A stretch of DNA of 64,000 bases, from assembly GCA_029775855.1 (NCBI GenBank), contig JARVJZ010000001.1, forward strand, positions 128,001 to 192,000. The letters are read 5' to 3'. The DNA is from Nitrososphaeria archaeon. Its GTDB lineage: Archaea > Thermoproteota > Nitrososphaeria > Nitrososphaerales > JAAOZN01. The notes beneath the pieces were generated by a model that worked only from the letters and a program-made list of their open reading frames with translations, ran no database searches and was not told the origin of the DNA. The position numbers and the translations under genes are program-made. Of the stretch, positions 154-30,720 are shown piece after piece. Positions within the stretch are counted from its first letter, which is position 1. Every line of letters begins with the position of its first letter.

Positions 154-1566
154 TTATACTACTGGAATTAGTCTATATCTCCTTATGTGTCCTTCCAGCT
201 TCGTCTGTATATTAAATAGTTGAGTATTAGGCTTTACCCCGTATAGAAAATGAGCACCATCTATTTGGCATATCCGTAAGTGTATCGTGGCTAAGGCCCT
301 TAGTTCATCAATAATCTTCATCGACGGTCTCGCTATGTTTATACGCAGCACCCCAAAGTTCTTGGTTCGCGCAACACTCTCTCCTAGAGTTCTTAAGGCT
401 TCTTTTTCACTGTAAACATATTCGACAGTGTCAAAGCCTACAATCGACAAAGCTGGTCTTCTTGTCAACTTCATCAATTGTAGTGTCGCTGTCCAGAACC
501 TGGTAGTGTCTTCTATAATGGATCGTCCACTTAACGGTAAAACATAAGGTGATGCAGATGTCTCCTCGGTTTCGAATCTGTAATCTACAATTTTTAGGTT
601 CTCTAAAGGTGGTGTCACATCTTTTAAGACTTCTATCATCTTGTTTGCGCTAATTCCTTGTGGTGGTAGGATGATAACTGGGTAGCCTTGACTTAGAAAA
701 TTTGATATTATAGGAACTAACAGCAGCTCTAATGGTATCCCTACGTCTTCATCAACCTCTAGCAAGTCGTAGCTTCCTGGAATGAATCCGTCTGTCAAAA
801 TATTATCCAAGTCGCGAATTCCAGTCGAATAACGATTTGGTTGATGTGGAATCACCTCACATACGCCTGTTAGCTTCGTTTCTGGTAAGGTTGGCGGGAA
901 GACATGGAATCCGTTTTCGAGCGTGTATACAAATCTTGGATTGCTTAATCTGGTTCCTCTAAGCTTAAGAATCTCCAACTCTCTTATTAAACGCCCTACA
1001 TGCATCTTTCTTCTAAGAATAATTACGCCATCGGCTACAAACTCACCACTACCTAATATTACCTTCTTCACTCCCGGAGGAATCTCACCTGTAATTAAGG
1101 TTGTGCATCCTTCTTTTCTCACAATCTTGTCTAGTATGTTGTGTAGCAGAGAGCGGGCTTCAATCGGCTTCTCAACCGCTTGCGCAAATGTTGAAAAGGA
1201 ATCTATAACAACACGCTTAGCCTCCATTGTGCGTATACGCTCTAAAAGAGCTTTAAGAGATTCAGATATCATCGCTTCTTGGCCAGTCAGCATCTCCATA
1301 AAGCAGAACTTATCCTCACTTTCAAGCTTCCTAAAGTTGTAAAACCTCTCCATATTATCAAAGAAAGTTTGACGGTCTTCACTAAAGCTCACATAAATAC
1401 CTTTCTCGTCATAATTGACTGCACCATCATAAATAAATTGAGCAGAGAAAATACTCTTCCCTGTGCCAGGTTCGCCGCATATAAGAATTAAGCTTCCTCT
1501 AGGAAAGCCCCCTTCAACAAAGGGATCCAATTCTTTAACGCTTGTTGAAACCCTAGTAACCGGCAT
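154..1566 (-). CDS. KaiC/RAD55-family two-domain ATPase, second domain degenerate
   Basis: VSTSVKELD, Walker A GEPGTGKS, Walker B VVIDS, ILKLRGT; second repeat STGIRDLD lacks a Walker A lysine. Confidence 0.9.
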   Translation of the reverse strand: MPVTRVSTSVKELDPFVEGGFPRGSLILICGEPGTGKSIFSAQFIYDGAVNYDEKGIYVSFSEDRQTFFDNMERFYNFRKLESEDKFCFMEMLTGQEAMISESLKALLERIRTMEAKRVVIDSFSTFAQAVEKPIEARSLLHNILDKIVRKEGCTTLITGEIPPGVKKVILGSGEFVADGVIILRRKMHVGRLIRELEILKLRGTRLSNPRFVYTLENGFHVFPPTLPETKLTGVCEVIPHQPNRYSTGIRDLDNILTDGFIPGSYDLLEVDEDVGIPLELLLVPIISNFLSQGYPVIILPPQGISANKMIEVLKDVTPPLENLKIVDYRFETEETSASPYVLPLSGRSIIEDTTRFWTATLQLMKLTRRPALSIVGFDTVEYVYSEKEALRTLGESVARTKNFGVLRINIARPSMKIIDELRALATIHLRICQIDGAHFLYGVKPNTQLFNIQTKLEGHIRRYRLIPVV

Positions 1567-2179: not shown

Positions 2180-3772
2180 TTACGCTCCCTTCACTACTTC
2201 CTCGATGAGTTCAGCAGCTTTATCTCGCCCAATATCAACGATATATGGTCCAAGCCTCGGTCCTCGGTCTGAAGATATGAGAATCTGGTATAGTGTTTTA
2301 AAGAGCTCTTGGGGCTTAAGTCCATTGCGTTTTGCTGCCTCAAATATACTGTTTTGAATCTGTTGAGCATCGCTTAGAGCCCTTATAGATTGCGCAACTT
2401 CAGCTAAAGCCTTTTTCTGCTCCTCACTTAAAGCAAGTTTAACAGACTCATGCCTCGTAAAGTCCTCAGCCCAGTTCGCGGCTAACAAGATCTTTTTCTT
2501 CAACTCTTCATCTACTTCTTTTACGAATCCATAGGCTGCTAGCTTCTTTGAAACAAACTCTACCATTGACTCCTTGGGTGCTACTGATGCTAACTGTGTT
2601 AGAAGTCTATACGGTATATGTGTTGATGGCTTCGCCGGGGGCTTTAGAAGATTCACATATTCATAGAGCCCACGCATCTTCCTCAGCTCCGCTGGGTTTT
2701 CAATCTTCTTTACTCCAAAATACACATCTTCCAGCATGTCGTATTCATCCATATAGTTAGGAACATCCTCAACTGAGAGACTTCTTGTTCCTACAACTCT
2801 CTTAAACATCAGCAGGAGAAGCGATTGTGGTGAACCGTATCTGAGCCAAGTCTGAGGTGTAAAAACGTTTCCAACAGATTTAGATATCTTTCTACCCGAC
2901 TTATCCAAGAATAGCTCATACCTAATATGATAAGGATGCGGATGATTTAGAATATTATCCGATATCCAATCATTAACTTTAACTGAATCAGCTATATCTT
3001 TACCATAAGCTTCAAACCTTATGTCAAACGCAGCCCATCTTGCCGCCATCTCGCCTTTCCAACTCAGCTTACCCTTACCCTCTAACACATTCAACTCCCC
3101 TTCATGCCCACATCCCTTAACCCATCTCCCACCTATTTCAGCACCTTCACATCTGTACGCTATAGTGTGTTTCTCCTCATTGTATGAGTATGCCACAGCC
3201 ACGTAAAGCCTACCGCAACGTTCACAAAGAGGGTAGTAGGGTAGTATTTGCTCAAACTTCTTCTGCCCTATAACCTCAGCTATATATTGCCCTATCTTCT
3301 GCGCATTATTCAGTATAGTCTGAATCTGACCGTTTAGAAGCCCCTTCTGATATGCTTCAGCCCCACTCTGGAATGTATACTCTATACTCAAACGATCTAA
3401 AGCGTCAAGCAACATAGCGCTCATATGAACACCATAAGAGCGGTGGCAGCCAAAAGGATCTTGTATCAAAGTTACAGGTTTTCCGATATCATCTTCTAAC
3501 CACTTTGGTAACCCAGCCGGAACCTTACGCAGACCATCAAAGTCATCTGAATAAGCTATCAACTCAGACCTAAAGCCCATATCTTCTAACGCCAGCTTGA
3601 CACCATACGCTCTAACCGCATCACTTAAGCTTCCAACATGTGGTATTCCTGAAGCTCCAAGACCACTTTCAACTCTTAAATACGTTAGAGACCTACCTAT
3701 CTGCTTCTCTCTTTCAATAACCTTAGATGCCACTTTATCAAGCCATGTGCCGCGTCCTATTTTTATGCTCAA
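2180..3772 (-). CDS. lysS: Lysine--tRNA ligase, class I
   Basis: SGIPHVGS (HIGH-like), FEAYGKD, KISKSVGN (KMSKS-like), GPRLG. Confidence 0.96.
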   Translation of the reverse strand: MSIKIGRGTWLDKVASKVIEREKQIGRSLTYLRVESGLGASGIPHVGSLSDAVRAYGVKLALEDMGFRSELIAYSDDFDGLRKVPAGLPKWLEDDIGKPVTLIQDPFGCHRSYGVHMSAMLLDALDRLSIEYTFQSGAEAYQKGLLNGQIQTILNNAQKIGQYIAEVIGQKKFEQILPYYPLCERCGRLYVAVAYSYNEEKHTIAYRCEGAEIGGRWVKGCGHEGELNVLEGKGKLSWKGEMAARWAAFDIRFEAYGKDIADSVKVNDWISDNILNHPHPYHIRYELFLDKSGRKISKSVGNVFTPQTWLRYGSPQSLLLLMFKRVVGTRSLSVEDVPNYMDEYDMLEDVYFGVKKIENPAELRKMRGLYEYVNLLKPPAKPSTHIPYRLLTQLASVAPKESMVEFVSKKLAAYGFVKEVDEELKKKILLAANWAEDFTRHESVKLALSEEQKKALAEVAQSIRALSDAQQIQNSIFEAAKRNGLKPQELFKTLYQILISSDRGPRLGPYIVDIGRDKAAELIEEVVKGA

Positions 3773-3997
3773 CCCTCTTACCCCTACTCTGCTGCTGAAT
3801 ATAAGGCTCAGCCCTCACTACCTACATAATATAACAGAACTCGACGAATCGTTCTGCTTTTCTTCAGTCTTCTGAGTCTGTTCTTCAAAAATTGTGGTAG
3901 TAGCAACCCCTCTGATACCATCTTGAACGATTAAAAATATATTTTTTCTATAGGATTATTGCACCATTCTTTTATATATTAGAATCATCTTTTTTAC

Positions 3998-4492
3998 ATG
4001 ATAAATATGGCTGAAGCATCTCAGATCTTAGCATCAGATGAAACGATTAAGGTTATGGAGATACTTAAGCGATATAGTAGCGATAAGGATAATCTTATAC
4101 CTATTCTTCAAGAGATCCAAAAGAATGTGGGATACTTATCTCCAGATTTTGTAAGATTGGTATCAAAGCATCTAAAGATATCAGCTAGCAGCGTCTATGG
4201 TGTCGCAACATTCTACACGATGTTTAAATTCGCTAAACCAGCAAAACACAATATTAAAGTATGCTTAGGAACATCTTGTCACGTCAAAGGTGGAGACCGT
4301 ATTCTTGAAACATTCGAGAGGCTGCTTGAAGTAAGATGCGGGGAAAGCAGTCGAGATTTGATGTTTAGTTTAGAGCGTGTGGCTTGTTTAGGTTCATGCG
4401 CACTTGCACCAGTAGTGGTTATAGATGATACTATTTACGGTAATATGCATGTAGATCGGATTAAACCAATTCTCTCTAAAATTAGAGGGTGA
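3998..4492 (+). CDS. NuoE/HydC-like [2Fe-2S] subunit
   Basis: LIPILQEIQ, GVATFY, VCLGTSCHVKG, ACLGSCALAP. Confidence 0.93.
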   Translation: MINMAEASQILASDETIKVMEILKRYSSDKDNLIPILQEIQKNVGYLSPDFVRLVSKHLKISASSVYGVATFYTMFKFAKPAKHNIKVCLGTSCHVKGGDRILETFERLLEVRCGESSRDLMFSLERVACLGSCALAPVVVIDDTIYGNMHVDRIKPILSKIRG

Positions 4493-6411
4493 AAAAGCTG
4501 ACTAGACCTTTTGATGAGATTCGCAAACAAGCGGTAGAAGAATGGAACCGGCTTTGGAACGACGGAAGAGCTGTAATTAGAGTAGAGTCCGCTACCTGCG
4601 GTAGAGCAGCCGGCGTTCTACAAGTAGCTGATGCTGTGCAGAAGAAGCTTCAAGAGCTTAACATAGATGCAAAGATCGTAAACACGGGTTGCATCGGGTT
4701 ATGCTATCTTGAACCCATTATGGATGTGACGAAACCAAATCAACCAAGCATCCTCTACCACAGCCTAGACCCGAAGACAGCAGCATCTATAGTTGAAGAC
4801 TACCTAGTTAAAAATGATATTAGAGCAGATAAAGCGCTTTGTAGCCTGGGAAGCAGCTATGCCAATTTACCATCTTTAGCTGAGCTCCCAGTAATGCAGA
4901 AGCAGACAAGATGGATTCTTCAGCGCTGTGGTCTCATAGATCCAGAGAAGATAGAGCATTACATTGCATTAGGAGGATACAGTGGTCTAGTTAAAGCTCT
5001 CTCTATGAAGCCTCATGAAGTTATAGAGTGGGTTAAGTTGAGTAGGTTAAGAGGGAGAGGTGGCGCAGGTTTTCCAACTGGAAAAAAGTGGGAAGTTTGC
5101 AGATCTGCACCCGGTGATGAAAAATACATCATCTGCAACGCTGATGAAGGTGATCCCGGAGCCTTCATGAATAGGGCTCTACTTGAAAGTGACCCTCATT
5201 TTGTGCTTGAGGGGATGGTTATAGGCTCTTATGCTTTAGGTGCGCAAGTAGGCTACATATACTGTAGAGCTGAATATCCTCTCGCTCTAGAAAGACTCAG
5301 AACGGCTTTAAAACAGATGGCTGATTTTGGCTTCTTAGGTAAAGACATCTTAGGTTCTGGGCATAATTTTGAGATACGCATCAAAGAAGGCGCTGGTGCT
5401 TTCGTATGTGGCGAAGAAACTGCGCTAATAGCTTCTATCGAAGGAAAGAGAGGTATGCCTAGACCAAGACCACCTTACCCCGCCCAATCAGGGCTGTGGG
5501 GTAAACCTACAGTAATAAATAACGTTGAGACTTGGGCTTGTGTATCATTAATCTTCCAAAAGGGTTGGGAATACTTCGCCAACAAGGGCTCAGAGAGTAG
5601 TAAAGGAACTAAGACCTTTTCGCTCGTCGGCAAAGTTAAGAGAGCTGGTCTTATAGAAGTGCCGCTTGGAATTACACTTAAAGAAATTATTTATGATATA
5701 GGAGGAGGCATAATCGGCGATAAAGAATTCAAGGCAGTTCAGATAGGAGGTCCTTCAGGCGGCTGCTTACCTAAGGTCCTCTTGACTACGCCAGTGGACT
5801 ATGACAGCTTAAGTTCAGCAGGCTCTATTATGGGCTCTGGCGGTATTGTAGTTATGGATGAAGATACTTGTGTAGTTGATATAGCCCACTACTTTCTCGA
5901 CTTTACCCAGAAGGAGTCTTGCGGCAAATGTGTTGTATGCAGAGAAGGCACGTGGAAGATGCTTCAGCTTCTTAAAGCTATTAAAGAAGGTAGAGCTGAC
6001 TCTAACACACTAGCCAAGCTAGAAGATCTTGCTCAAATCGTAAAGATAGGTTCGCTCTGCGGACTTGGGCAGACAGCACCTAACCCCGTCTTAACAACCT
6101 TAAGATACTTTAGGGACGAATATGAGGCACATATCAATGAGAAGCGATGCCCAGCCAAGGTCTGTAAGAATTTGATTACATACTATATTATCCCAGATAA
6201 ATGTGAAGGATGCATGATCTGCTTGAGAGAATGCCCAAGCGGTGCAATAAGAGGCGGCAAAAGAATGGTGCATATCATAGATCAAGAAAAATGTTCAAAA
6301 TGCGGAGTCTGTTACAACGTCTGCCCACCACGATTCAGAGCAGTAGTCAAAGTTTCTGGCGAGCATATGAATACACCAAGCGAACCTATACCTGTGCAGA
6401 GGAGGAAGTAA
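4489..6411 (+). CDS. NuoF/HydB-like FMN/NADH subunit with N-terminal thioredoxin-like [2Fe-2S] domain and C-terminal 2x[4Fe-4S]
   Basis: LRGRGGAGFPTG, NADEGDPGAFM, CGEETAL, GGPSGG, ESCGKCVVCREG, CEGCMICLREC, CSKCGVCYNVC. Confidence 0.94.
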   Translation: MKKLTRPFDEIRKQAVEEWNRLWNDGRAVIRVESATCGRAAGVLQVADAVQKKLQELNIDAKIVNTGCIGLCYLEPIMDVTKPNQPSILYHSLDPKTAASIVEDYLVKNDIRADKALCSLGSSYANLPSLAELPVMQKQTRWILQRCGLIDPEKIEHYIALGGYSGLVKALSMKPHEVIEWVKLSRLRGRGGAGFPTGKKWEVCRSAPGDEKYIICNADEGDPGAFMNRALLESDPHFVLEGMVIGSYALGAQVGYIYCRAEYPLALERLRTALKQMADFGFLGKDILGSGHNFEIRIKEGAGAFVCGEETALIASIEGKRGMPRPRPPYPAQSGLWGKPTVINNVETWACVSLIFQKGWEYFANKGSESSKGTKTFSLVGKVKRAGLIEVPLGITLKEIIYDIGGGIIGDKEFKAVQIGGPSGGCLPKVLLTTPVDYDSLSSAGSIMGSGGIVVMDEDTCVVDIAHYFLDFTQKESCGKCVVCREGTWKMLQLLKAIKEGRADSNTLAKLEDLAQIVKIGSLCGLGQTAPNPVLTTLRYFRDEYEAHINEKRCPAKVCKNLITYYIIPDKCEGCMICLRECPSGAIRGGKRMVHIIDQEKCSKCGVCYNVCPPRFRAVVKVSGEHMNTPSEPIPVQRRK

Positions 6412-6412
6412 A

Positions 6413-8545
6413 ATGGCTAACAGAACAGTAAAATTAAATATCGACGGTAAAACTGTTGTGGTAGAAAGTGGAAAAACTATCCTAGAAGCAGCTTTAGCAA
6501 ACGGAATCTACATCCCTCACCTATGCTACCACCCAGCCCTAACACCCTCAGGCGCCTGCAGACTTTGTTTGGTTGAAGTAGAAGGCATGCGTGGTGTGGT
6601 TGCATCATGCTCTACTCCTGCATCAGATGGTATGATTGTTCATACGGAGACGCCACTTATATCTAAACTGAGAAAGTCTACGCTTGAGTTCATACTCTCG
6701 GAGCATCCGCTTGACTGTTTAGTCTGCCCTAAGAACCTTCGATGTGAGCTCCAAGCTGTTGCACAATATATAGGTGTAGATGGATTAAATATACAGCGTA
6801 GAGCAAAAGAGGTGCAGATAAACGATAAGAACCCTCTCATCGTTATAGACCCGAATAAATGTATACTATGTGGCAGATGTGTAAGCATATGTAACGAAGT
6901 CAGAAAAGTCGGTGCCTTAACATTTGTAAACAGAGGGAAAGAAACCAGAATCGGAACATTCTTCAACAGTCCTTTAACCGAAGCTGGCTGTAGATTTTGC
7001 GGCGCCTGTGTAGAAGTCTGCCCAACCGCAGCCCTAATGGATAAAAATAGCTCTTGGAGGACACTTGCCGAAAGAGAAGCTAAGCTCGTGCCTTGTATAG
7101 ATGCTTGCCCAGCACACATCGATATACCTCGATACCTAGCGTTTATAGCGCGAGGGCTCTTCCAAGAAGCTGTAAACGTTATCAGAGAAAAGGCCCCCTT
7201 CCCACGTGTGTTAGGTAGAGTCTGCACACACCCATGTGAATACGCTTGCAAACGCGGCGAAGTTAACGAACCTATCGCCATTAGGCTATGTAAGAGGTTC
7301 GTAGCCGACTTAGACGACAAATCTTGGCGTCTGAAGATCAAGAAGATGCCTAAGACAGGCAAAAAAGTCGCTATAGTAGGCTCAGGACCAGCGGGTTTAA
7401 CCGCTGCCTACTTCTTAGCCAAACTTGGACACAGTGTAGTCATATTTGAGGCAGAGAATAAAATTGGCGGGTTGATGAGGTACGGTATACCTGAGTTTAG
7501 GTTACCTAAACGCGTTCTAGATGATGAGATAGAAGAAATAATGAATGTTGGTGTAGACGTTAGGTGTAACTTAAAGGTCGAATCTTTAGAAAGCCTGTTT
7601 GAGCAAGGATTTGACGCTGTATTCTTATCTATTGGTGCAGGCTCCACATCTAGGCTCGGTATACAAGGTGAGGATCTACAAGGCGTAGTTGATTGTCTGA
7701 GCCTACTTAAAGCCGCTAATCTCGGTCAAAAAATTGAAGTTGGGCGTAGAGTGCTGGTAATAGGGGGAGGAAACTCCGCTATTGATGCTGCAAGAACAGC
7801 GCTTAGGTTAGGCGCTGAGAGTGTTAAGATCATTTATAGGAGAAGTAGGGTTGAAATGCCTGCTGGTAGAGAAGAGTTAGACGAAGCTTTAGAAGAAGGT
7901 GTCGAATTAATAGAACTTACTGCGCCTTTAAAGATAGTTAAGGAGAACGGTGTGTTAAGACTTACTTGTATTAAAATGAGACTCGGAGACCCTGATGCTA
8001 CTGGTAGAAGAAAGCCTGAGCCCATAGAGCATAGTGAGTTTGTTATAGATGCTGACACTATCGTGAAGGCTGTAGGACAAAAACCTTCTCTACCTTCTGG
8101 ATTCAACCTTGAGTTGGACTCGAATGGTCGTGTTAAAGTAGATCAGAATCTTATGACGAGCAGAAAAGGTGTGTTTGCAGGAGGCGATATTGTAAGAGGG
8201 CCTTCATCCATTATACAAGCTATCGCCGATGGTAGGCAAGCAGCTTCGGCTATAGATATTTACTTGGGTGGCGAAGGGAAGATAGATGATGAACTTGCCT
8301 CAAAGCTAACCCCAAATCCAGTCTTAGGGTATGACGCAGACTTCCCCTTCATTAAGAGAGTAGAATGTTCGAAGCTTGAGCCTAAAACCAGAATCAAGAG
8401 TTTCGATGAAGTGGAGTCAGGATTTAAACAAGAAGAGGCTGTTAGAGAAGCTAGCCGATGCCTTAGATGTAAGTTAAGGTTGACTATACCACAACCAATT
8501 CTTCCACCAATTGAGACAAAATATAGATTGATGGAAAAAGGTTGA
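6413..8545 (+). CDS. Fusion of NuoG/HydA N-terminal Fe-S relay with GltD/NfnB(SudA)-type FAD/NADPH oxidoreductase
   Basis: IPHLCY-GACRLCLVE, HPLDCLVCPKNLRCELQ, CILCGRCVSIC, CRFCGACVEVCP, then PCIDACPAH, LGRVCTHPCEYAC, VGSGPAGL, IGGGNSAIDAAR, YRRS. Confidence 0.88.
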   Translation: MANRTVKLNIDGKTVVVESGKTILEAALANGIYIPHLCYHPALTPSGACRLCLVEVEGMRGVVASCSTPASDGMIVHTETPLISKLRKSTLEFILSEHPLDCLVCPKNLRCELQAVAQYIGVDGLNIQRRAKEVQINDKNPLIVIDPNKCILCGRCVSICNEVRKVGALTFVNRGKETRIGTFFNSPLTEAGCRFCGACVEVCPTAALMDKNSSWRTLAEREAKLVPCIDACPAHIDIPRYLAFIARGLFQEAVNVIREKAPFPRVLGRVCTHPCEYACKRGEVNEPIAIRLCKRFVADLDDKSWRLKIKKMPKTGKKVAIVGSGPAGLTAAYFLAKLGHSVVIFEAENKIGGLMRYGIPEFRLPKRVLDDEIEEIMNVGVDVRCNLKVESLESLFEQGFDAVFLSIGAGSTSRLGIQGEDLQGVVDCLSLLKAANLGQKIEVGRRVLVIGGGNSAIDAARTALRLGAESVKIIYRRSRVEMPAGREELDEALEEGVELIELTAPLKIVKENGVLRLTCIKMRLGDPDATGRRKPEPIEHSEFVIDADTIVKAVGQKPSLPSGFNLELDSNGRVKVDQNLMTSRKGVFAGGDIVRGPSSIIQAIADGRQAASAIDIYLGGEGKIDDELASKLTPNPVLGYDADFPFIKRVECSKLEPKTRIKSFDEVESGFKQEEAVREASRCLRCKLRLTIPQPILPPIETKYRLMEKG

Positions 8546-8556
8546 AGATAAAGTGT

Positions 8557-10167
8557 CTAATGGTTGAGCTGCTTAGCCATATAAGTCCCCTCAAGTCTAT
8601 ATCCTTGTCTTACATAGTATTGGCGAACTCCAACCGCGCTCGTAACTAAAATCTTTCTGCAATCATATACGCCTCTAGCAATGTTTTCAGCTTCGTAGAG
8701 GAGTTTCTTACCGAACCCTCTATGCTGCCAAGCATTTTCTTTCCTAATTCCTAATGGTAGGGCTTCACCATACACGTGGAGTTCTCTCACAAGCGCTGTT
8801 CTATCATTTTTCACTTCTTCCCTATGAGCTTTATTTGACGGTATCCTTAGTCTAAGAAAGCCTAAAAGGGTGTCTGTTAAAGGATGTTCATATGATAGGA
8901 AGATCTCTACTCCTTCAGACGCCTCATATTCTTCTCTTAGCAATTTGATTTCAGAATCGTTTATCCTTATGTTCTTAAGCCCTACTTCCCTGCATCTTAT
9001 GCATCTGCATCTAACCCCCATTCTCCTCATTTCTTGCTGTACGATTTCTCTTAAGTTGCCATTTTTGACACCCGCTACTATCTGGCCTGCCGGTATTTCC
9101 CGCTGTATGCGCATAATTCTAATCCAAGGTGGCACCATCTTTTTCACGGCAGAAAGTAAATCTACAACCTCATTGAGATCATATGGCTTGTACTCACCCT
9201 TTAAGTAGAGTTTATGGATGTAAGTGCCTTCTGTCACGACTGTTGGGTATATTTTAAGCATATCTGGCTTAAACCGAGGGTCCTCAAAGAGCATCTTAAA
9301 GTGCTGAAGGTCTTTTTCTATGTCTGATTTCGGTAAGCCTGGCATCATATGGGCAACTATCTTTAAACCAGAATCTCTAGCTGCTTGGAAGGCTTCAGCT
9401 ACATCTTTGACTGAATGCCCACGGTTAATAAATCTGTAGATTTCATCGTCAAGCGTTTGAACACCTATTTCAACTCTTGTGACTCCATAGCTTAGCATAA
9501 AGTCGATATGCTTCTCCTTACAGTAGTCTGGTCTAGTTTCTACAGTAAAGCCGACGTTTCTTATTTTAGCGTGTTCAGCTTCACTCAACGCTTCTTTAAG
9601 TGTCTGCGAAGGTTTCCCGTTTAACGCATCAAAGCAGCCTTTAACAAATCTAATCTGCTCTTCTTCGGGTAGGGATGTGAATGTTCCTCCTATTATCACA
9701 AGCTCGACTTTATCGACGGTATGTCCTATCTGTTTTAGCTGCTTCAGCCGCGCATTAACCTGTAGATAAGGGTCATATAGGTTCTCTTTAGCTCTTCTCG
9801 ATGAGGGTTCAAATCCAGTGTAGCTTTGTGGTGTTCCCTTACTCACACCCCCAGGGCAGTAGATGCAGACGCCGTGGGGGCAGGGGTGAGGTGCAGCCAT
9901 AACCGCGACAACAGCTATCCCGCTCGCTGTTCTTATTGGTTTGATTTTAAGTCTGCTTAACCCTTTTAGGTCTTCTTGGGGTAGTGTGTTTATTAGTTGT
10001 CTTAATCCTATAAGCTTATTTAATCCGTATCTTTTTGAGATGAGTTTTTGATGTTGGATAAGTTTCTTCGTTGTGAGTTTGGATTCTGACGATATGATTT
10101 GGGCTAACTCTTTGAGCGCTGCTTCATACGCTCTGCTCCTATCCTCTGTTTCAGCTTCGGGTTGCAT
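8557..10167 (-). CDS. elp3: Elp3 tRNA U34 carboxymethyltransferase (radical SAM + GNAT)
   Basis: CPHGVCIYCPGG, ETRPD, LKIYPT, RELHVYG, QHRGFG. Confidence 0.95.
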   Translation of the reverse strand: MQPEAETEDRSRAYEAALKELAQIISSESKLTTKKLIQHQKLISKRYGLNKLIGLRQLINTLPQEDLKGLSRLKIKPIRTASGIAVVAVMAAPHPCPHGVCIYCPGGVSKGTPQSYTGFEPSSRRAKENLYDPYLQVNARLKQLKQIGHTVDKVELVIIGGTFTSLPEEEQIRFVKGCFDALNGKPSQTLKEALSEAEHAKIRNVGFTVETRPDYCKEKHIDFMLSYGVTRVEIGVQTLDDEIYRFINRGHSVKDVAEAFQAARDSGLKIVAHMMPGLPKSDIEKDLQHFKMLFEDPRFKPDMLKIYPTVVTEGTYIHKLYLKGEYKPYDLNEVVDLLSAVKKMVPPWIRIMRIQREIPAGQIVAGVKNGNLREIVQQEMRRMGVRCRCIRCREVGLKNIRINDSEIKLLREEYEASEGVEIFLSYEHPLTDTLLGFLRLRIPSNKAHREEVKNDRTALVRELHVYGEALPLGIRKENAWQHRGFGKKLLYEAENIARGVYDCRKILVTSAVGVRQYYVRQGYRLEGTYMAKQLNH

Positions 10168-23209: not shown

Positions 23210-25303
23210 TTGGTTTTAGAGGAGATCAGCACAAACTGCCGCGGTTGCGGACATGGAGGATGCGGTATCATAGTCAAGGTTGAAGATGGTAAGATAGTAG
23301 GTATAAAAGGCGATGAAACACACCCAATAAGCAAAGGCTACATATGCATAAAAGCATATGCAGCAGTAGAGCAACTTAACCACCCAAGTAGGCTTAGACA
23401 TCCTTTAAGACGAATAGGGCCAAAATCTTCAGGGAAATGGGAAGAGATCACTTGGAATGAAGCTATAGATGTTGTTGCTACAAAGCTGAAGGAAATAGCC
23501 GAGGAATCCGGACCTGAAAGCGTGGTTTTTATGCATGGGACTGGTAGAGACTACTTCCACTTTATGAATAGATTCACTAACCTCTTTGGCTCACCTAACT
23601 ATGTGACTAATGGGCATATGTGCTATATCCCAAGGCTTGCGTTGACTAAAGTTCTGGGTTTAAGCAGCCTACCTATAGTTGATTACGACGCATCACCAAA
23701 ATGTGTGCTTGTATGGGGAAGCAATAGCGTAATCTCAAACCCAGACGAATACATTGGTATCAATTTGACGCTAAATCTAAAGAAAGGAGCAAAGATGATT
23801 GTAGTAGATCCAAGAAAGACCAGATTAGCAAGTAGTGCTAACATCTGGCTCCAGATAAGACCTTCTACAGATTTAGTACTTGCATTAGGTATGATTAAGT
23901 ATATAATTGATAGAGAACTTTACGATAAGAACTTTGTAGAACATTACACCATAGGTCTCAAAGATCTAAAGATACATGTCTCAAGATATACGCCGCAGTT
24001 AGTTGAAGAGATCACTTGGATTCCACGGGATAAGATGGAAGAGGCTGCAGAAATGTATGCGACGACTAAACCCGCAGCAATACATTGGGGTGTGGGGATA
24101 GAGCAGAACATAAACTGCATAGGTATAGATGCAGCCTTAATGTATCTTGTCGCCTTAACTGGAAACCTAGATGTTCCAGGTGGCAACGTACTCTTTGATT
24201 CCCCTCCAATAGTTGGCTATCGCGACTTCGGTCTGCCAGATAAGCTGCCTGAGGAGAAAAAGCAGAAGAGGATTGGTGGGCAAGAATATAAGCTCCTTGA
24301 CTCGGTAGGCAGATGTCCACCCTATGCTGTATGGGATGCAATCATTGAGGGAAGACCGTATAAAGTTAGGGCATTGTATATTGCCGGTTCAAACCCTCTT
24401 GTTGTAAGAGAAAATACCGCAAGAGTAAGAGAAGCTCTAGAAAAAGTAGAGTTCATGGTGGTTGCGGACATGTTCAAGACACCTACGGCAGAATACGCCG
24501 ACATAATACTGCCTGTGGCATCTTGGCTCGAATACAACACAATAGGAGACTATTGGAAGAGCCACGGCTATGTCTTCGCTAGGAAAAAGATCGTTGATAA
24601 CTCTGAATGCTGGTCTGATTTAAAGATCTTTAACGAGCTAGGGAAAAGGCTTTACCCAGAATACTTCTGGAATGACCCAGACGACGCGCTAAATTACATT
24701 CTAAGTCCAGCAAAGGTTACATGGGTAGAGTTCGCTAAGTTAGGCTACCTAAGGGGGCGAGTAGAATATCGTAAGTATATTAAAGTTGGATTTAATACAA
24801 AATCTGGTAAATTCGAATTTTATCCAGAGAAGTTTAAGGAATGGGGGCTAGGACCACTGCCAGAATATCAGGAGAACCCAGAAACGCCTCTAAGTGCGTC
24901 TGCGTTGGCTGAGCGCTACCCCTATATGCTGATTACGGGAGGAAGAAGCATAGAATATTTCAACTCGGAAGGCAGGCAGCTGAAGACCCTAAGACGAAGC
25001 CATCCAGACCCTATAGTTGAGATAAACCCAGCAACCGCGAATAAGCACGGCATTAAAGATGGTGATTGGGTTATAGTAGAGAATCATAGGGGCTCTGTAA
25101 AGATGAAGGCAAGATTGACTGAAGGCATAGATCCAAGAGTTATACACGCTGAGCATGGTTGGTGGTTTCCAGAGATCGAAACCCCTGACCACGGCTACCA
25201 GATATCAAACATTAACCTTCTGACAGATGATAGGCCTCCAGTAGACCCATTAATGGGCTCTACACGCCTAAAATCTTTACTATGTAATATAAGGAAGGCT
25301 TAG
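23210..25303 (+). CDS. Mo/W-bis-PGD (DMSO reductase superfamily) enzyme resembling the acetylene-hydratase-like clade; substrate unknown
   Basis: CRGCGHGGC...GYICIK [4Fe-4S], RLRHPL, FGSPN...GHMC, TGNLDVPGG, ADIILP, C-terminal pterin-binding domain; no Tat leader. Confidence 0.88.
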   Translation: MVLEEISTNCRGCGHGGCGIIVKVEDGKIVGIKGDETHPISKGYICIKAYAAVEQLNHPSRLRHPLRRIGPKSSGKWEEITWNEAIDVVATKLKEIAEESGPESVVFMHGTGRDYFHFMNRFTNLFGSPNYVTNGHMCYIPRLALTKVLGLSSLPIVDYDASPKCVLVWGSNSVISNPDEYIGINLTLNLKKGAKMIVVDPRKTRLASSANIWLQIRPSTDLVLALGMIKYIIDRELYDKNFVEHYTIGLKDLKIHVSRYTPQLVEEITWIPRDKMEEAAEMYATTKPAAIHWGVGIEQNINCIGIDAALMYLVALTGNLDVPGGNVLFDSPPIVGYRDFGLPDKLPEEKKQKRIGGQEYKLLDSVGRCPPYAVWDAIIEGRPYKVRALYIAGSNPLVVRENTARVREALEKVEFMVVADMFKTPTAEYADIILPVASWLEYNTIGDYWKSHGYVFARKKIVDNSECWSDLKIFNELGKRLYPEYFWNDPDDALNYILSPAKVTWVEFAKLGYLRGRVEYRKYIKVGFNTKSGKFEFYPEKFKEWGLGPLPEYQENPETPLSASALAERYPYMLITGGRSIEYFNSEGRQLKTLRRSHPDPIVEINPATANKHGIKDGDWVIVENHRGSVKMKARLTEGIDPRVIHAEHGWWFPEIETPDHGYQISNINLLTDDRPPVDPLMGSTRLKSLLCNIRKA

Positions 25304-26149: not shown

Positions 26150-28039
26150 GTGGTCTATTTGGGGGCAGAATTCGGCGGCTTTATGGGTCAGATTCTAAAG
26201 GTTAACCTCTCCACCAGCAAAATCGTTAAAACAGATCTGCCCAGCGAATGGCCTCGAGCTTATGTGGGTGGAGTAGGATTTGGTGCGAGAATACTATATG
26301 ATGAGGTATGCCCTTGGGTTTCCCCCTTTGATCCAGACAACAGACTGATATTTACTCAAGGCCCACTTTCAGGCACATTTACCCCAACTGCCTCCAGATA
26401 TACTGTAGTCACTAAATCTCCTTTAACAGGGTACTTCGGCGACGCTAGCGGAGGAGGCTTCTTCCCAGCAGAGTTAAAGAAGTGCGGATATGATGCTATA
26501 GTCTTAACTGGGCGTGCAACTAAGCCTTCCCTTCTGCTTTTATCAGATGGCAGCTATGAGCTAAGAGATGCTTCAGCATACTGGGGTATGAATGCTAGAG
26601 AAGCGGAGAGAGCAATAGTAAACGATCTAGGCGACAAATCCTACAAAGCTTGCACAATAGGAAGAGCTGGAGAAAGGTTAGTTAGATTCGCAGCAATAAT
26701 GAACGACGAAGCTGATAGAGCAGCAGCTCGATGCGGGGTAGGTGCGGTCATGGGCTCTAAGAACCTCAAAGCAATAGTTGTAAAAGGCTACAAGCAGCCA
26801 AAAGTCGCAGACGCAAATGCATTAAAGAACCTACTCGTAGAAATAACCAACTACGTAAAAACTAACAAGAACGTTGTAGGGTTCACAAAAGGCGGCACAC
26901 CCGGAGCATTCACCTTCTTCTATCAGCTGGGGGACGTGCCTATACATAACTGGAGCAGCTCATCCTTCGGCCCATCAGACGCCTACGTTGAGAAAGTGGC
27001 TTATCCAGGAGGCTATGAGAGAATACTACTAAGGAATAGGACGTGCTATGCTTGCCCAATAAGTTGTCGACGAGTATCTAAAGGCATAGATGGGCTATAC
27101 GGTGTTGAAGAAGGCGTAGAGGGGCCTGAATATGAGACAGTCGCCTCATTTGGGCCTAACTGCGGGATTTCCGAGCCTGAAATAATCGCTAAAGCAAACA
27201 ACCTTTGCAACGAATATGGGTTAGATACCATCTCTGCTGGTGGTGTGATAGCTTTTGCTATGGAATGCTTTGAGAAAGGGATACTAAGCGAAGAAGACAC
27301 AAAAGGTGTTAAACTCCGATTTGGTGAAGGTGAAGCCCTTTTAGATGTTCTCAGAATGATAGGTGAAAGGGAAGGAATTGGCAACCTATTAGCCGAAGGT
27401 GTAAGAAGAGCCGCTGCGGCAATAGGCAAAGGGGCAGAAGATTACGCTATACACGTTAAAGGGTTGGAGATAGCTATGCACGACCCTAGAGCATTCCAAG
27501 GCGGTGGTGTACATTACGCTTGCACGCCAACAGGAGGCAGACATACTGAGGGTCTAAGCATAATTAAAGAACTTAAGACCAGATTCTCTACCGAAGGAAA
27601 AGGTAAGCTGGTGAAGGAGGTTGAGGATTGGGATGCGTTTGTTCAAGCATCTGGTTGGTGCCTCTTTGTGGTTGATGCAAGAGGATATCCTTCAAATGAG
27701 CATCTAATTAAAGTCTTTAACGCGGTTACAGGATTCAACCTCACTTTAGGTGATGCGATGCTGCTCGGAGAAAAGATCTTTAATCTAAAAAAGGCTTTCA
27801 ATGTGAAACACGGATGCAGTAGGAGCGAAGACACATTACCTCAGAGGCTTCTGACATTACCTACCAAGGCTGGTGCTGTAGTTAAGTTAAATGAACTTCT
27901 CCCACAGTATTACGAAGCTAGAAGATGGGATGCTGGAACAAGCAAACCAACAAAAGCATTACTACAGTCCCTGGGGTTGAATGATGTTGCAACTGATCTT
28001 TGGGGAGTTGACAGCAGCGCCTTAGAGCCTAAGGTTTGA
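26150..28039 (+). CDS. aor: Tungsten aldehyde:ferredoxin oxidoreductase family enzyme
   Basis: KSPLTG, AARCGVGAVMGSKNLKA, CYACPISC, PEYET, GLDTIS, HDPR. Confidence 0.93.
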   Translation: MVYLGAEFGGFMGQILKVNLSTSKIVKTDLPSEWPRAYVGGVGFGARILYDEVCPWVSPFDPDNRLIFTQGPLSGTFTPTASRYTVVTKSPLTGYFGDASGGGFFPAELKKCGYDAIVLTGRATKPSLLLLSDGSYELRDASAYWGMNAREAERAIVNDLGDKSYKACTIGRAGERLVRFAAIMNDEADRAAARCGVGAVMGSKNLKAIVVKGYKQPKVADANALKNLLVEITNYVKTNKNVVGFTKGGTPGAFTFFYQLGDVPIHNWSSSSFGPSDAYVEKVAYPGGYERILLRNRTCYACPISCRRVSKGIDGLYGVEEGVEGPEYETVASFGPNCGISEPEIIAKANNLCNEYGLDTISAGGVIAFAMECFEKGILSEEDTKGVKLRFGEGEALLDVLRMIGEREGIGNLLAEGVRRAAAAIGKGAEDYAIHVKGLEIAMHDPRAFQGGGVHYACTPTGGRHTEGLSIIKELKTRFSTEGKGKLVKEVEDWDAFVQASGWCLFVVDARGYPSNEHLIKVFNAVTGFNLTLGDAMLLGEKIFNLKKAFNVKHGCSRSEDTLPQRLLTLPTKAGAVVKLNELLPQYYEARRWDAGTSKPTKALLQSLGLNDVATDLWGVDSSALEPKV

Positions 28040-29087
28040 TTACCGCTCTACCCTTAACTTCACCGCTACGCAGCTTCGCTAGAGCTTCATTCGCTTCTTC
28101 TAGTCTGAATGATGTCGAGATAACTGGTTTTACCACCCCTCTGTTTGTGAGCTGAAGTATCTCGTTAAGATCTGTCAGTGTACCAGTGTAGCTACCCACT
28201 ATGTCCAACGCCAGTATTGGTAAGAGCGGTATCTGCATCTTAAGTATCCCCCCAAAGAGACCTACAACAACGAGCCTACCACCTTTTACAAGTATTTTCA
28301 CGGCGTTTTCAACGGTCTGAGTACTCCCAACAAAATCTATCACCGCATTAGCCCTCTTACCAAGTGCTTGCTTCATAACGGCGCCAATATCATCTTTAGA
28401 AGAGTTTATTGTAAAGTCTGCGCCGAGCGATTTGGCATACTCCAGTTTTCTATCATCGATATCCAAACTAACAATAGTAGCTCCACTCAAGGCCTTAGCA
28501 AGTTGAATAGCCATTCCACCAACACCACCAGCACCTATTATAGCAAGCACGTCGTCAGGAGCCACTCTAGCCTTCTTCAAAGCATGCAACGCAGTTATGC
28601 CCGAGCAAGCTAGAACACCAGCTTCCTCAGGCTTCAATCCATCATATTTTAGTACATAGCGTGGATCTGGAACCAAGACATACTCCGCATATCCTCCGTC
28701 AGCATACACTCCTAGAGCGTTAGGTCTCTCACAGAGGTTATCAAATCCAGCCCTACAAGCTCTGCATACTCCGCAGCCTATCCAAGGATAGACGACGACA
28801 GTGTCACCTACTTCGAAGGCTGATACCGCTCTTCCTTTAGCCTCAATCCTGCCAGCAATCTCATGTCCTAAGGTTAATGGAAGTCTTATCCTTCTATCTC
28901 GTATGACTAATCTTTCCTCTTCTCTTGCGCCGTAATATCCTTCTGCCAGGTGTATGTCACTATGGCACACTCCACAAGCATCAACCTTAACCAGCACGTT
29001 ATTGTCTAGAACTTGTGGTAAGTCGCTTTCCATAAGCTGAAGCGGTTTACCAAACTCCTGGAGTTTCATAGCCTTCATAAAGACCAT
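28029..29087 (-). CDS. Zn-dependent alcohol dehydrogenase (MDR)
   Basis: GVCHSD, LGHEIAG, CGVCRAC...C, GAGGVG followed by LDID (NAD type). Confidence 0.93.
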   Translation of the reverse strand: MVFMKAMKLQEFGKPLQLMESDLPQVLDNNVLVKVDACGVCHSDIHLAEGYYGAREEERLVIRDRRIRLPLTLGHEIAGRIEAKGRAVSAFEVGDTVVVYPWIGCGVCRACRAGFDNLCERPNALGVYADGGYAEYVLVPDPRYVLKYDGLKPEEAGVLACSGITALHALKKARVAPDDVLAIIGAGGVGGMAIQLAKALSGATIVSLDIDDRKLEYAKSLGADFTINSSKDDIGAVMKQALGKRANAVIDFVGSTQTVENAVKILVKGGRLVVVGLFGGILKMQIPLLPILALDIVGSYTGTLTDLNEILQLTNRGVVKPVISTSFRLEEANEALAKLRSGEVKGRAVIKP

Positions 29088-29195
29088 AATTTTTATACGC
29101 CACCCTATAGTTTAAACATTTCTTTTCTACTAACCATTAATTAAATTCTTGCTTATATTTAGCAACCTTGTATTGCGCGGTTATAATTAAAATCT

Positions 29196-29221
29196 ATTAA
29201 GAATAAATTTATATTCTTAAT
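29196..29221. promoter_or_regulatory. 10-6-10 inverted repeat overlapping the abfD TATA box
   Basis: ATTAAGAATA-aattta-TATTCTTAAT; TTTATAT at 29208-29214, about 25-30 nt before ATG 29239. Confidence 0.6.
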
Positions 29222-29238
29222 CGTTCTAAATATATCAT

Positions 29239-30720
29239 ATGCCTATTCGTTCGGGCGCAGAGTACATAGAAAGCCTGCGTAAACGCAAGCTCAAGGTCTA
29301 CTACTTAGGTCAGCTAATAGAGAATCCAGTTGACCACCCGGTTATAAGACCTTCTATAAATGCTGTAGCAGAAACATACGACCTTGCTAACAGAGAGCCT
29401 GAGTTAGGTAGCGCCCACTCATCGCTGATCGGCAAAAAGGTCAACAGATTTCTACATATTACAGAAAGCGCTGAAGATGTAGTGCTTCAAAATAAGATGC
29501 AAAGGCGACTAGGGCAGCTGACTGGAACTTGCTTCCAGCGATGCGTAGGTATGGATGCGTTAAACTCGCTCTACTCAGTAACTTATGAGATAGATGAGAA
29601 ATACAAAACTGAGTATCATAAACGCTTCATAGACTTTGTAAGATACGTGCAAGAAGAAAACCTTGTAATAGGAGGAGCTATGACTGATCCAAAAGGGGAC
29701 AGAAGCGTCAGCCCATCAAAGCAAATCGATCCAGACCTATTTCTGCACGTGGTCAAGAAGACTGATGAAGGAATAGTCATTAGAGGTGCAAAGGCTCATC
29801 AAACAGGCTGCATAAACTCACATTGGCTCATCTTCATGCCCACACAACGGCTAGAACCAGGTGAAGAAGATTACGCCGTGAGCTGCGCTGTGCCAGTAGA
29901 TGCGCCAGGCTTAACCTACATTTATGGGCGGCAAGCGTGTGACACAAGAATAGTTGATGGTGGAGAAATTGACGCAGGTAACTCGATGTATTCTGGTCAA
30001 GAGGCTCTTATTGTAGTTGAAGATGTCTTTGTTCCTTGGAAATACGTCTTTATGTGCGGGGAGATAGAGTTTGTTCCAATACTTGTCGACCGCTTCACAG
30101 CTTATCATCGAAGGAGCTATGTATGCAAAACTGGAGTTGGCGATGTGCTTATAGGAGCTGCTGCTTTAGTAGCAGATTATAATGGGGTTGGCGATAAAAG
30201 CCACATAAAAGAGAAGCTCGTAGAAATGGCACACCTCAACGAAACCATCTACGGCACAGGCATAGCATCATCCTTTCTATCCTATAAGACCAAGGCAGGC
30301 AATTGGCAGTGTGACAGTATGCTCGCTAATGTGTGTAAGCATAATGTTACACGCTTCCCATATGAGATCGCACGCCTCGCTCAAGACCTTGCTGGAGGAA
30401 TAGTGGTGACACTACCATCTGAAAAGGATCTCAGAAACCCCGAAACTGGGCATCTTCTAAGGAAGTTCTTTGCTACAAAAGAGAATGTCGATCCTGAGGA
30501 TAGGATGCGCATAATACGCTTGATAGAGAACATGACTATTGGGCGAAATGCTGTTGGGTATCTTACTGAATCGCTACACGGTGCAGGTTCTCCACAAGCG
30601 CAGAGAATAGTGATTTCTAGGCTTATGCAGATTGAGGAGAAGAAGAAGTTAGCTAAGCGGCTTGCTAAGATAAAGGATTTGGAGGAGCAGGTTAAAAAGG
30701 CTACGGCAAAAATAACTTAA
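29239..30720 (+). CDS. abfD: 4-hydroxybutyryl-CoA dehydratase
   Basis: TCFQRCVG and YHRRSYVCK (3Cys/His cluster ligands), MTDPKGDRS, GQEA, TESLHGAGSPQAQR. Confidence 0.93.
   Translation: MPIRSGAEYIESLRKRKLKVYYLGQLIENPVDHPVIRPSINAVAETYDLANREPELGSAHSSLIGKKVNRFLHITESAEDVVLQNKMQRRLGQLTGTCFQRCVGMDALNSLYSVTYEIDEKYKTEYHKRFIDFVRYVQEENLVIGGAMTDPKGDRSVSPSKQIDPDLFLHVVKKTDEGIVIRGAKAHQTGCINSHWLIFMPTQRLEPGEEDYAVSCAVPVDAPGLTYIYGRQACDTRIVDGGEIDAGNSMYSGQEALIVVEDVFVPWKYVFMCGEIEFVPILVDRFTAYHRRSYVCKTGVGDVLIGAAALVADYNGVGDKSHIKEKLVEMAHLNETIYGTGIASSFLSYKTKAGNWQCDSMLANVCKHNVTRFPYEIARLAQDLAGGIVVTLPSEKDLRNPETGHLLRKFFATKENVDPEDRMRIIRLIENMTIGRNAVGYLTESLHGAGSPQAQRIVISRLMQIEEKKKLAKRLAKIKDLEEQVKKATAKIT

Follow-up and report, generated by a model that had tools for sequence, protein, structure and literature searches.

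The window analysed here is a 64,000-nucleotide stretch of contig JARVJZ010000001.1 from a Nitrososphaeria archaeon (assembly GCA_029775855.1), and our subject is an operon of three genes near its left end, bfuC-bfuB-bfuA (bfuCBA), which we read as encoding a candidate Nfn-type enzyme of the Bfu family with an unusually short A subunit. The three genes are co-directional and practically without intergenic gaps (Table 1), and their open reading frames lie exactly where an earlier first-pass annotation of the same DNA had placed them.

Table 1. Features of the bfuCBA operon and its flanks. Nucleotide positions are those of the window and residue numbers those of the protein named.
Feature	Position	Strand	Remarks
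Class I lysyl-tRNA synthetase (LysRS) gene	2180-3772	-	Pfam tRNA-synt_1f; divergent from bfuC; left boundary of the slot
TATA-like A/T-rich element TTTTATATATTA	3970..3981	+	17-28 nt 5' of the first bfuC ATG; read from the sequence
bfuC (NuoE/HydC/NfnC-like)	3998-4492	+	164 aa; alternative in-frame ATG at 4007
bfuB (HydB/NfnB/StnB-like)	4489-6411	+	640 aa; GTG start; 4-nt overlap with the bfuC stop
BfuB N-terminal thioredoxin-like domain	Cys37/68/72 plus Cys147		Followed by the FMN/NADH Rossmann domain and SLBB
BfuB hinge (B2) site, His/Cys	Cys461, His548, Cys554, Cys559
BfuB four-helix bundle, B1 [4Fe-4S]	Cys478/481/484/524
BfuB C-terminal ferredoxin domain (B3, B4)	CX2CX2CX3CP at 572-583 and 602-613
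bfuA	6413-8545	+	710 aa; starts 1 nt past the bfuB stop
bfuA Fe-S wire, aa 1-208	6413..7036	+	Pfam; match to HydA1 8a6t_A
BfuA wire [2Fe-2S]	Cys38/49/52/66
BfuA wire His-ligated [4Fe-4S]	His98, Cys102/105/111		HxxxCxxCxxxxxC at 98-111
BfuA wire two [4Fe-4S]	Cys150/153/156/203 and Cys160/193/196/199
bfuA linker, aa 209-226	7037..7090	+	Between Pfam domains; partly helical (218-225, predicted); pLDDT 77-90
bfuA NfnL/GltD-like module, aa 227-689	7091..8479	+	Pfam, alignments, model
BfuA module two [4Fe-4S] sites	Cys228/232/271/275/279, Lys294, Cys683/686		Cys683/686 C-terminal
BfuA FAD site	323-328		GSGPAG
BfuA NADPH site	451-456, 475-478		GGGNSA ... YRRS, plus Arg363
bfuA C-terminal tail, aa 690-710	8480..8545	+	pLDDT <50 for 704-710; LPP 697-699 conserved
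Elp3-type radical SAM/GNAT tRNA modification gene	8557-10167	-	TIGR01211, 714 bits (cut-off 350); right boundary of the slot

By every core feature that can be tested in sequence, the three genes are members of the Bfu family. BfuC, which the first-pass annotation had called NuoE-like, matches Pfam PF01257 (2Fe-2S_thioredx) with 161 bits; an N-terminal helical part precedes its thioredoxin-like [2Fe-2S] domain, the cluster cysteines of which (Cys89, Cys94, Cys130 and Cys134) were located by a motif script. Its best solved relatives are HydC (8a6t_C, E 2e-39), the NiFe-HydC 7t2r_C and NfnC (9n5u_C, E 5e-35). BfuB is composed of Complex1_51K (150 bits), SLBB, NADH_4Fe-4S (114 bits) and two C-terminal Fer4 domains, and all eight cysteines of the ferredoxin domain are invariant in an alignment of 30 homologues. 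Its best solved relative is NfnB of Thermococcus sibiricus (9n5u_B, E 6e-232, over residues 30-619), followed by NiFe-HydB of Acetomicrobium mobile, NfnB of Caldicellulosiruptor saccharolyticus and StnB of Sporomusa ovata.

The HydB-like motifs AFM (225-227), GEETAL (308-313) and GGPSG (420-424) and the two C-terminal [4Fe-4S] sites, all of which had been noticed in the first pass, were located by script and by Pfam. AFM, F305 and GGPSG align with A201-M203, F281 and residues 396-400 of T. sibiricus NfnB and are likewise invariant in the 30 homologues. Passages of PMC12018979 give AFM, the phenylalanine of loop 278-287 and the GGPSG loop as Bfu signatures that are missing from non-bifurcating NuoF homologues, and Glu310, the B1 cysteines, the hinge site and the ferredoxin-type domain, all kept in BfuB, are also described as setting bifurcating Bfu cores apart from these homologues (PMC9304861, PMC12018979). 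In the same alignment, E310 of BfuB occupies the position said to select NADH. The hinge ligands C461, H548, C554 and C559 align with C437, H524, C529 and C534 of T. sibiricus NfnB, and the fifth B2 ligand of the NiFe enzyme (C476) corresponds to K499 in BfuB and to a threonine in T. sibiricus, so that the BfuB hinge site, with three cysteines and a histidine, is probably of the Zn type, as in Nfn and FeFe enzymes. The extra N-terminal [2Fe-2S] domain that had been ascribed to BfuB holds as a domain, since it aligns with 9n5u_B from residue 30 (the Pfam thioredoxin-like match is weak, E 0.0075, and below the cut-off), but its cofactor may be either [2Fe-2S] or Zn, which are indistinguishable by sequence; the corresponding site of the T. 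sibiricus enzyme is reported to hold Zn (PMC12018979). The alignment also places Cys147 in BfuB and in the A. mobile enzyme, but not in that of T. sibiricus.

BfuA joins two parts in one polypeptide. Its Pfam domains run in the order Fer2_4 (residues 4-80), NADH-G_4Fe-4S_3 (87-123), Fer4 dicluster/Fer4_Nqo3 (141-208), Fer4_20 (226-302) and Pyr_redox_2 (317-607), which bears out the earlier description of a HydA/NuoG-type Fe-S wire leading into a GltD/NfnB-type FAD domain with an NADPH signature. Wire cysteines are invariant or nearly so in 60 homologues; the seven module cysteines (228, 232, 271, 275, 279, 683 and 686) are conserved, and YRR(S/T), the 2'-phosphate signature, is kept. No H-cluster, NiFe or molybdopterin domain is found among the Pfam matches of the three proteins (for BfuA, the best 25 of 33 families), as the first reading had also stated. 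Residues 6-216 match the [2Fe-2S]/His-[4Fe-4S]/2x[4Fe-4S] wire of HydA from a HydABC enzyme (8a6t, E 7e-56), and an AlphaFold model of BfuA built with 60 homologues (pLDDT 89.6, pTM 0.87) superposes well part by part: the wire on formate dehydrogenase (FDH) and NuoG N-termini (Z 24, root-mean-square deviation [rmsd] ~1.9 Å, ~220 residues) and the module on NfnL of Pyrococcus furiosus (5jca_L; Z 41.4, rmsd 1.7 Å, 397 residues, 44% identity). In HydA, too, the substrate-handling domain directly follows the wire (the 'Type 1' logic described in PMC9304861); where HydA has its H-cluster domain, BfuA has the NfnL-like NADPH/FAD module.

Among solved proteins BfuA is closest to NfnA of C. saccharolyticus (9bov_A, E 7e-174), StnC of S. 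ovata (8oh5_C) and NfnA of T. sibiricus (9n5u_A). Its alignment with NfnA falls into three permuted pieces: on 9bov_A, residues 4-102 fall on 2-100, residues 227-687 on 103-567 (438 bits) and residues 108-212 on 571-675. In the characterised NfnA and StnC proteins, as described in PMC10482914, PMC12018979 and PMC11829005, the NfnL/GltD module is inserted after the first ~100 residues, and behind it come the other clusters and then a dead FDH-like domain. BfuA instead carries the module C-terminal to a complete wire; the protein ends at residue 710, and its domains together with the NfnL tail fill residues 4-689, so that the FdhF-like C-terminal domain, which in StnC/NfnA holds two off-path clusters and tetramer contacts, is missing. 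Its 710 residues compare with 1172-1178 in S. ovata and C. saccharolyticus, with 963 in T. sibiricus NfnA (inserted layout, partial Fdh-like domain), with 947-1178 in its solved relatives, with 963-1178 across the characterised NfnA/StnC proteins, and with 898-1195 among the StnC lengths listed in Table 1 of PMC7483475. The first-pass annotation had noted that StnABC and Nso combine similar parts, with a larger StnC; relative to BfuA, the parts of StnC/NfnA stand in permuted order. Of the junction motifs of StnC, HxxxCxxxCxxxCP (PMC7483475) and CxxCxCxxxxC, the former gives way to an intact HxxxCxxCxxxxxC in BfuA.

Several details nevertheless tie the BfuA module to that of StnC/NfnA. Shared traits are the Lys-ligated cluster (K294, equivalent to K170 of StnC), Arg363 (equivalent to R239), the GxGxxA...YRR signature and the C-terminal CxxC; StnC K170 and R239 have been probed by mutagenesis (PMC10482914). 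The CxxC segment that opens a classical NfnL stands at the end of the BfuA module (residues 9-48 of the NfnL of a congener align to 648-687), and this circular permutation is common to BfuA, StnC and NfnA, which argues for the same origin of their modules. The bacterial Nfn-Bfu enzymes StnABC of S. ovata (8oh5) and NfnABC of C. saccharolyticus (9bov) likewise have three subunits encoded in the order C-B-A, and they share with the operon a HydBC-type core with all motifs tested here. The operon is best read as encoding a probable NADH-dependent ferredoxin:NADP+ oxidoreductase of the Stn/NfnABC type whose short A subunit has an appended NADPH module and no FdhF-like domain; it would work like Stn/NfnABC yet departs from them in two architectural features.

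Further evidence comes from the chromosomal position of the operon. In this genome (G000; 1.51 Mb, 6 contigs, 98.4% complete) bfuCBA lies between the LysRS and Elp3 genes, the latter convergent with bfuA and 11 nt from it, and the genome has a single GltD-like and a single NuoF-like gene. No NfnS was found in it; the sole NfnS-like match (28%, C1:287173-287916) appears to be PyrK-like. Three congeners (99, 98 and 72% complete) have no match to BfuB and carry nfnS-nfnL instead, with nfnS matching P. furiosus NfnI (5jca_S) at E 2e-100 and nfnL scoring 609 bits on TIGR01316 (cut-off 472). One of them, G209, has the order LysRS-nfnS-nfnL-Elp3, its LysRS being 89% identical to that of the window over 141 aa and its Elp3 75%; the 72%-complete G220 has nfnS-nfnL-Elp3 with an Elp3 82% identical; and in G228 the pair is more divergent, with no LysRS or Elp3 flanks seen within 4.2 kb. 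Conversely, metagenome contig L103 repeats the arrangement LysRS-bfuC-bfuB-bfuA-Elp3, its products being 67-83% identical to those of the window (LysRS 83%, Elp3 72%), and contig L104 also holds the three bfu genes. A single slot is thus occupied either by classical NfnSL (G209, G220) or by the bfuCBA cassette (G000, L103), and this alternation is the strongest available evidence that bfuCBA does the job of Nfn. Similar patterns have been described elsewhere: Stn and Nfn are reported as almost mutually exclusive in acetogens (PMC7483475), and Thermococcaceae as holding either Nfn-Bfu or NfnAB (PMC9304861), so that the lineage of T. sibiricus, like that of the window, alternates the two enzymes between relatives.

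Taken together, the tight gene order, the domain and ligand content, the homology to solved NfnABC and Stn, the loss of NfnSL and the occupation of its locus suggest that bfuCBA encodes a soluble Bfu-family complex catalysing NADH + reduced ferredoxin + 2 NADP+ <-> NAD+ + oxidised ferredoxin + 2 NADPH, a reading to which we assign a probability of roughly 75%. The Stn-like enzyme on a HydBC-type core that had been proposed in the first pass fits all sequence tests made here as well as the locus exchange. In the NADPH-oxidising direction, NADPH would reduce the FAD of the BfuA module, from which single electrons would pass through the two [4Fe-4S] clusters of the module, one of them ligated by a lysine (K294), then along the HydA-type wire that belongs to the same chain, and finally to BfuB with its B1 cluster and FMN. 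There the FMN/B1/C1 site would split the electrons, reducing NAD+ at the FMN and sending the rest to ferredoxin via the mobile [2Fe-2S] domain of BfuC and the C-terminal [4Fe-4S] pair (B3/B4) of BfuB. The position of the substrate module behind the wire, like that of the H-domain in HydA, suggests that electrons would come into the wire from its HydA 'H-cluster side'. Assembly of the three proteins into one complex, the docking of the module on the wire within this path, the nucleotide specificities and bifurcation itself are likewise predicted.

Kumar et al. 2023 (PMC10482914) trace the electrons in StnC along FAD-C7-C6-C5-C4-C3 and place both clusters of its FdhF-like domain outside this route, so the domain missing in BfuA would be one that is not needed for electron transfer. 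The in vivo direction is most likely the reverse, with NADH and reduced ferredoxin giving the electrons for NADPH formation and 2-oxoacid and aldehyde oxidoreductases keeping the ferredoxin reduced; the window encodes the alpha and beta subunits of an archaeal 2-oxoacid:ferredoxin oxidoreductase (OFOR), both above curated cut-offs, and an aldehyde oxidoreductase (AOR), which makes a supply of reduced ferredoxin from these two enzymes, as had been suggested earlier, plausible. For the NfnSL (NfnAB) of P. furiosus and Thermotoga maritima (5jca, 4ylf) the same overall reaction is proposed and the NADPH/FAD module is homologous, but the window operon has no NfnS, its FAD is expected to be a non-bifurcating entry point, and the CxxC segment has moved from the N- to the C-terminus.

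A number of observations weigh against this reading. The A-subunit layout of BfuA has no precedent in a characterised enzyme, so that its activity is a prediction, and BfuA is without the two features that define NfnA/StnC, the inserted GltD module and the FdhF-like domain; S. ovata StnC deprived of the latter is reported to give no active complex (PMC10482914). Structure prediction, which the first-pass annotation had proposed as a check, gave confident folds for both parts of BfuA, but wire and module taken jointly superpose on the solved NfnA/StnC chains with an rmsd of 9 Å over 534-548 residues, so that the docking of the module on the wire may differ from that in these structures. No NCBIfam model scores above its curated cut-off for any of the three proteins (among the best 25 families for BfuB and BfuA). 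The exchange at the locus is a replacement and not proof of an identical reaction, and at 46 of 55 loci elsewhere that encode the BfuA fusion and have at least 2.6 kb of upstream flank, BfuB is not directly upstream. A weak hint of expression comes from two sediment metatranscriptome libraries, in which contigs cover stretches of bfuB and bfuA at 0-8 differences; one of them bridges the bfuB/bfuA junction, and such contigs do not prove transcription. Both runs are without cover at 3663-5430 and 8304-9187, gaps that carry no weight.

One alternative is an uncoupled, non-bifurcating oxidoreductase. The complex would then act as a simple NADPH:NAD+ transhydrogenase or as a ferredoxin:NAD(P)+ oxidoreductase, and its short A subunit would do no more than deliver electrons to the FMN. 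BfuA is indeed unlike the A subunit of every bifurcating Nfn-Bfu tested, S. ovata Stn itself shows uncoupled side reactions (PMC7483475), and since most fusion loci lack adjacent BfuBC, the fusion protein must elsewhere have other partners or work alone, the module presumably being able to act as a plain NADPH:Fe-S oxidoreductase. The core argues otherwise, as BfuB and BfuC keep all the bifurcation features of the literature, in residues invariant across the 30 homologues. Among these features is the ferredoxin domain, deletion of which is described as abolishing bifurcation in a HydABC (PMC11829005). The literature places bifurcation in the BC core rather than in the A subunit (PMC12018979, PMC10482914), and the operon took the place of a bifurcating enzyme at that enzyme's own locus. 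We consider an uncoupled enzyme unlikely.

Bfu cores are also known to serve many catalytic partners (PMC9304861), and the three proteins could supply only the NAD(P)H/ferredoxin part of a larger enzyme. Its catalytic subunit would then come from a distant gene, whether one of the two [NiFe]-hydrogenase-like genes, the FdhA-like molybdoenzyme at 23210-25303 or the AOR. The cytoplasmic FdhA-like gene and the AOR gene lie in the window, two NiFe large-subunit-like genes are present in the genome, and several BfuA homologues are named 'formate dehydrogenase beta subunit' by JGI. The top NCBIfam match of BfuA, PRK12814, points to the same SfrB/NADP-FDH beta type of GltD protein (600 bits, cut-off 916; residues 225-689 on 101-575 of 657). 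The module is presumed to resemble SfrB and Moorella FdhB, a comparison that draws in part on PMC7483475. Unlike in those systems, no FdhA/SfrA-like gene or other candidate partner adjoins the operon, which is flanked by LysRS and Elp3 both here and on contig L103. The molybdoenzyme has a 90% identical orthologue in G220 (72% complete), which uses NfnSL and in which no BfuB was found, so it is not a dedicated partner of bfuCBA; and BfuA carries a substrate site of its own, for NADPH. The catalytic partner encoded elsewhere that the first-pass annotation had considered as a threat to its reading therefore found no support, and we regard a larger enzyme of this kind as quite unlikely.

Very unlikely is a physiological role in the reduction of sulfur or polysulfide with NADPH, the activity originally reported for NsoABCD of Thermococcus litoralis: NsoC is among the closest StnC homologues (PMC10482914, PMC7483475), GltD-type proteins, SudA among them, can reduce polysulfide in vitro (PMC7483475, PMC5736913) and the organism comes from a hot spring, but Nso is itself a probable Nfn-type enzyme according to Kremp 2020 and Kumar 2023, the T. 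sibiricus homologue is described as a tightly coupled Nfn (PMC9304861), the operon has no nsoD-like fourth gene and the exchange with NfnSL points to an Nfn role.

Bfu-type Nfn enzymes as such are established. They have been described for S. ovata Stn (PMC7483475, PMC10482914) and C. saccharolyticus NfnABC (PMC11829005), an archaeal example from T. sibiricus (9n5u, 9n5v) has been purified and solved (PMC9304861, PMC12018979), and Schut et al. tabulate, in a supplement, 140 Nfn-Bfu from Euryarchaeota and Firmicutes. The statement in the first-pass annotation that no such enzyme was known from its archaeal lineage consequently stands for Nitrososphaeria and for the short layout but not for Archaea, the T. 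sibiricus host being a euryarchaeote and that of the window a member of the ammonia-oxidiser order. In the literature searched there was no description of an A subunit of ~700 aa with the appended layout or of a Bfu-type Nfn in Nitrososphaeria, the full clade lists of PMC9304861 lying outside this scope. Beyond the Nfn reading itself, we lean slightly towards a more specific proposal, namely that bfuCBA is a third, naturally minimal build of Bfu-type Nfn, in which an NfnL-like module would sit in the position of the H-cluster domain, the FdhF-like domain would be dispensable, electrons would enter at a different cluster than in Stn, and a bacterial cassette would have taken over the locus of NfnSL in a hot-spring, non-ammonia-oxidising lineage of the ammonia-oxidiser order.

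Structural work on Bfu enzymes is active, and what the large dead domain of NfnA/StnC does is among its questions. A natural operon without this domain offers a smaller and probably heterotrimeric test object for the mechanism of bifurcation (~1,500 residues per protomer, compared with ~1,900 in the bacterial Stn/NfnABC and ~1,700 in the T. sibiricus enzyme), and the short BfuA offers a direct test of which A-subunit clusters are needed. The sharing of one chromosomal slot in sister genomes by the unrelated NfnSL and Bfu-type enzymes would, if the reading is right, amount to a natural swap experiment in which two unrelated bifurcating solutions are interchangeable in vivo. The operon would also add ferredoxin/NAD(P)H balancing to the sparse metabolic picture of the non-ammonia-oxidising relatives within Nitrososphaerales.

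The cassette was likely acquired from bacteria by an old transfer. Beyond a small group at 76-84% identity, the nearest homologues reach at most 58% for BfuA and 63-66% for BfuB, and those that are named belong to Chloroflexota/Dehalococcoidia. The operon shows no compositional trace of transfer (43.6% G+C, compared with 43.4% for the genome). Full-length BfuA of 710 aa was found in G000 only, among 201 genomes sampled from the class and 151 from the order (the latter including one, G277, flagged as unpublished); the other matching genomes of the order have a free NfnL/GltD-type gene only, and some in the class sample add a separate 240-aa HoxU-like gene. A fusion in situ of the resident nfnL to an imported wire was considered and rejected, the BfuA module being 44-45% identical to the NfnL of the congeners compared with 53-58% to short or fused forms from Chloroflexota. 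A single clade of the BfuA module and congener NfnL was likewise rejected (delta log-likelihood 186, p 3e-35 in the approximately unbiased test), the constrained group having been named after inspection of the tree. In the NfnL-module tree the BfuA module falls outside the starred clade of canonical NfnL, and in both this and the BfuB tree the window forms a starred clade with L103 and L104, the sister group of which is without support; both are quick trees (LG+G4, midpoint root) with no clade-53 references.

The 700-aa fusion is common. As many as 7,719 of 8,000 scored candidates match it, the best 120 all measuring 687-747 aa with 96-100% coverage, and relatives of BfuA are encoded at no fewer than 591 genome loci. 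The fusion is present at 62 of the 80 best loci (60 bacterial and two from Thermoplasmatota). The nine of the 55 loci that do have BfuB directly upstream belong to Chloroflexota (1), Elusimicrobiota (3), Omnitrophota (2), unclassified bacteria (2) and Thermoplasmatota (1), and at three further loci BfuC-BfuB follow downstream. The fusion is thus a versatile NADPH module, the meaning of which in the window rests on its tight operon with bfuCB.

Other arrangements were seen around the same module. In many places its neighbours are unrelated genes. At loci from Clostridia, Coriobacteriia and Bacteroidota of gut and rumen (L020-L028, L033, L038 and others), the fusion is followed by a protein of ~460 aa (463 aa in Clostridia) whose sole recognisable part is the NuoF [4Fe-4S] region, a different and uncharacterised partner set for the NADPH module; at L026:5914-9310, a fumarate-reductase-type flavoprotein gene comes before it. 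Loci of the Dehalococcoidia type, from genomes (L059, L068, L072, L078) and metagenomes (L106, L107, L116, L124, L127, L128), have an NfnL-like module directly after a BfuB without ferredoxin tail, to which it is probably fused. A separate 220-aa HoxU-like gene comes next, a third way of joining an NfnL-like module to a Bfu core. Closer to the window, locus L082 (G095:C20, same class, family f15) encodes an NfnL module of the permuted type, 50% identical over residues 227-687 and likewise ending in the CxxC tail; the contig breaks off within its N-terminal part. Both genomes of that genus, 68% and 86% complete, gave no BfuB.

The window itself encodes archaeal markers, namely ribosomal protein S6e, aIF2-gamma, an Rpb7-like RNA polymerase subunit, MCM, a GINS subunit and Hel308. 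As a check on assembly, the region 3000-9600 was recovered in one 138-kb contig from a second hot-spring sample with 15 differences, and near-identical DNA is present in hot-spring metagenomes from several studies. The element TTTTATATATTA upstream of bfuC is a candidate archaeal promoter, from which the transcript would be leaderless or have a short leader.

Archaeal AmoA was found in 11 of 41 sampled genomes, which belong to other families of the order, and had no match in G000 or its three congeners. No haem-copper oxidase was found in the 98.4%-complete G000, which also carries a NuoD homologue. Its two [NiFe]-hydrogenase large-subunit-like genes lie at C1:335964-337226 and C2:311914-313140. 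The absence of AmoA and haem-copper oxidase from the searches, together with the hydrogenase-like genes, suggests an anaerobic, possibly H2-using lifestyle in hot springs.

Some further genes of the window deserve mention. The molybdopterin oxidoreductase at 23210-25303 (+) is a cytoplasmic-looking protein of 697 aa with formate dehydrogenase alpha as its best match (346 bits, cut-off 666); besides the orthologue in G220, the other congeners have paralogues at ~40%. The region 26150-30720 holds the gene of the AOR-family W/Mo aldehyde oxidoreductase, a convergent Zn-alcohol dehydrogenase gene and a gene of the HpaB-like flavin monooxygenase/dehydratase family, which may form a set for aldehyde and alcohol handling. 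On the minus strand, 154-1566 encodes a KaiC-family ATPase of 470 aa that weakly matches GvpD basic region 2; the open reading frame after it, of 126 aa, has no Pfam match at E <= 1e-5. Also on the minus strand, 47553-49010 encodes an RtcB RNA ligase. The intein-containing RtcB model is matched over its C-terminal extein only (101-485 on 578-961), so that this copy of RtcB appears to be intein-free. Lastly, in this genome of the ammonia-oxidiser order, the 523-aa product of 61424-62995 (+) matches 'methanogenesis marker 16 metalloprotein' (TIGR03287) with E 2e-41, below the cut-off.

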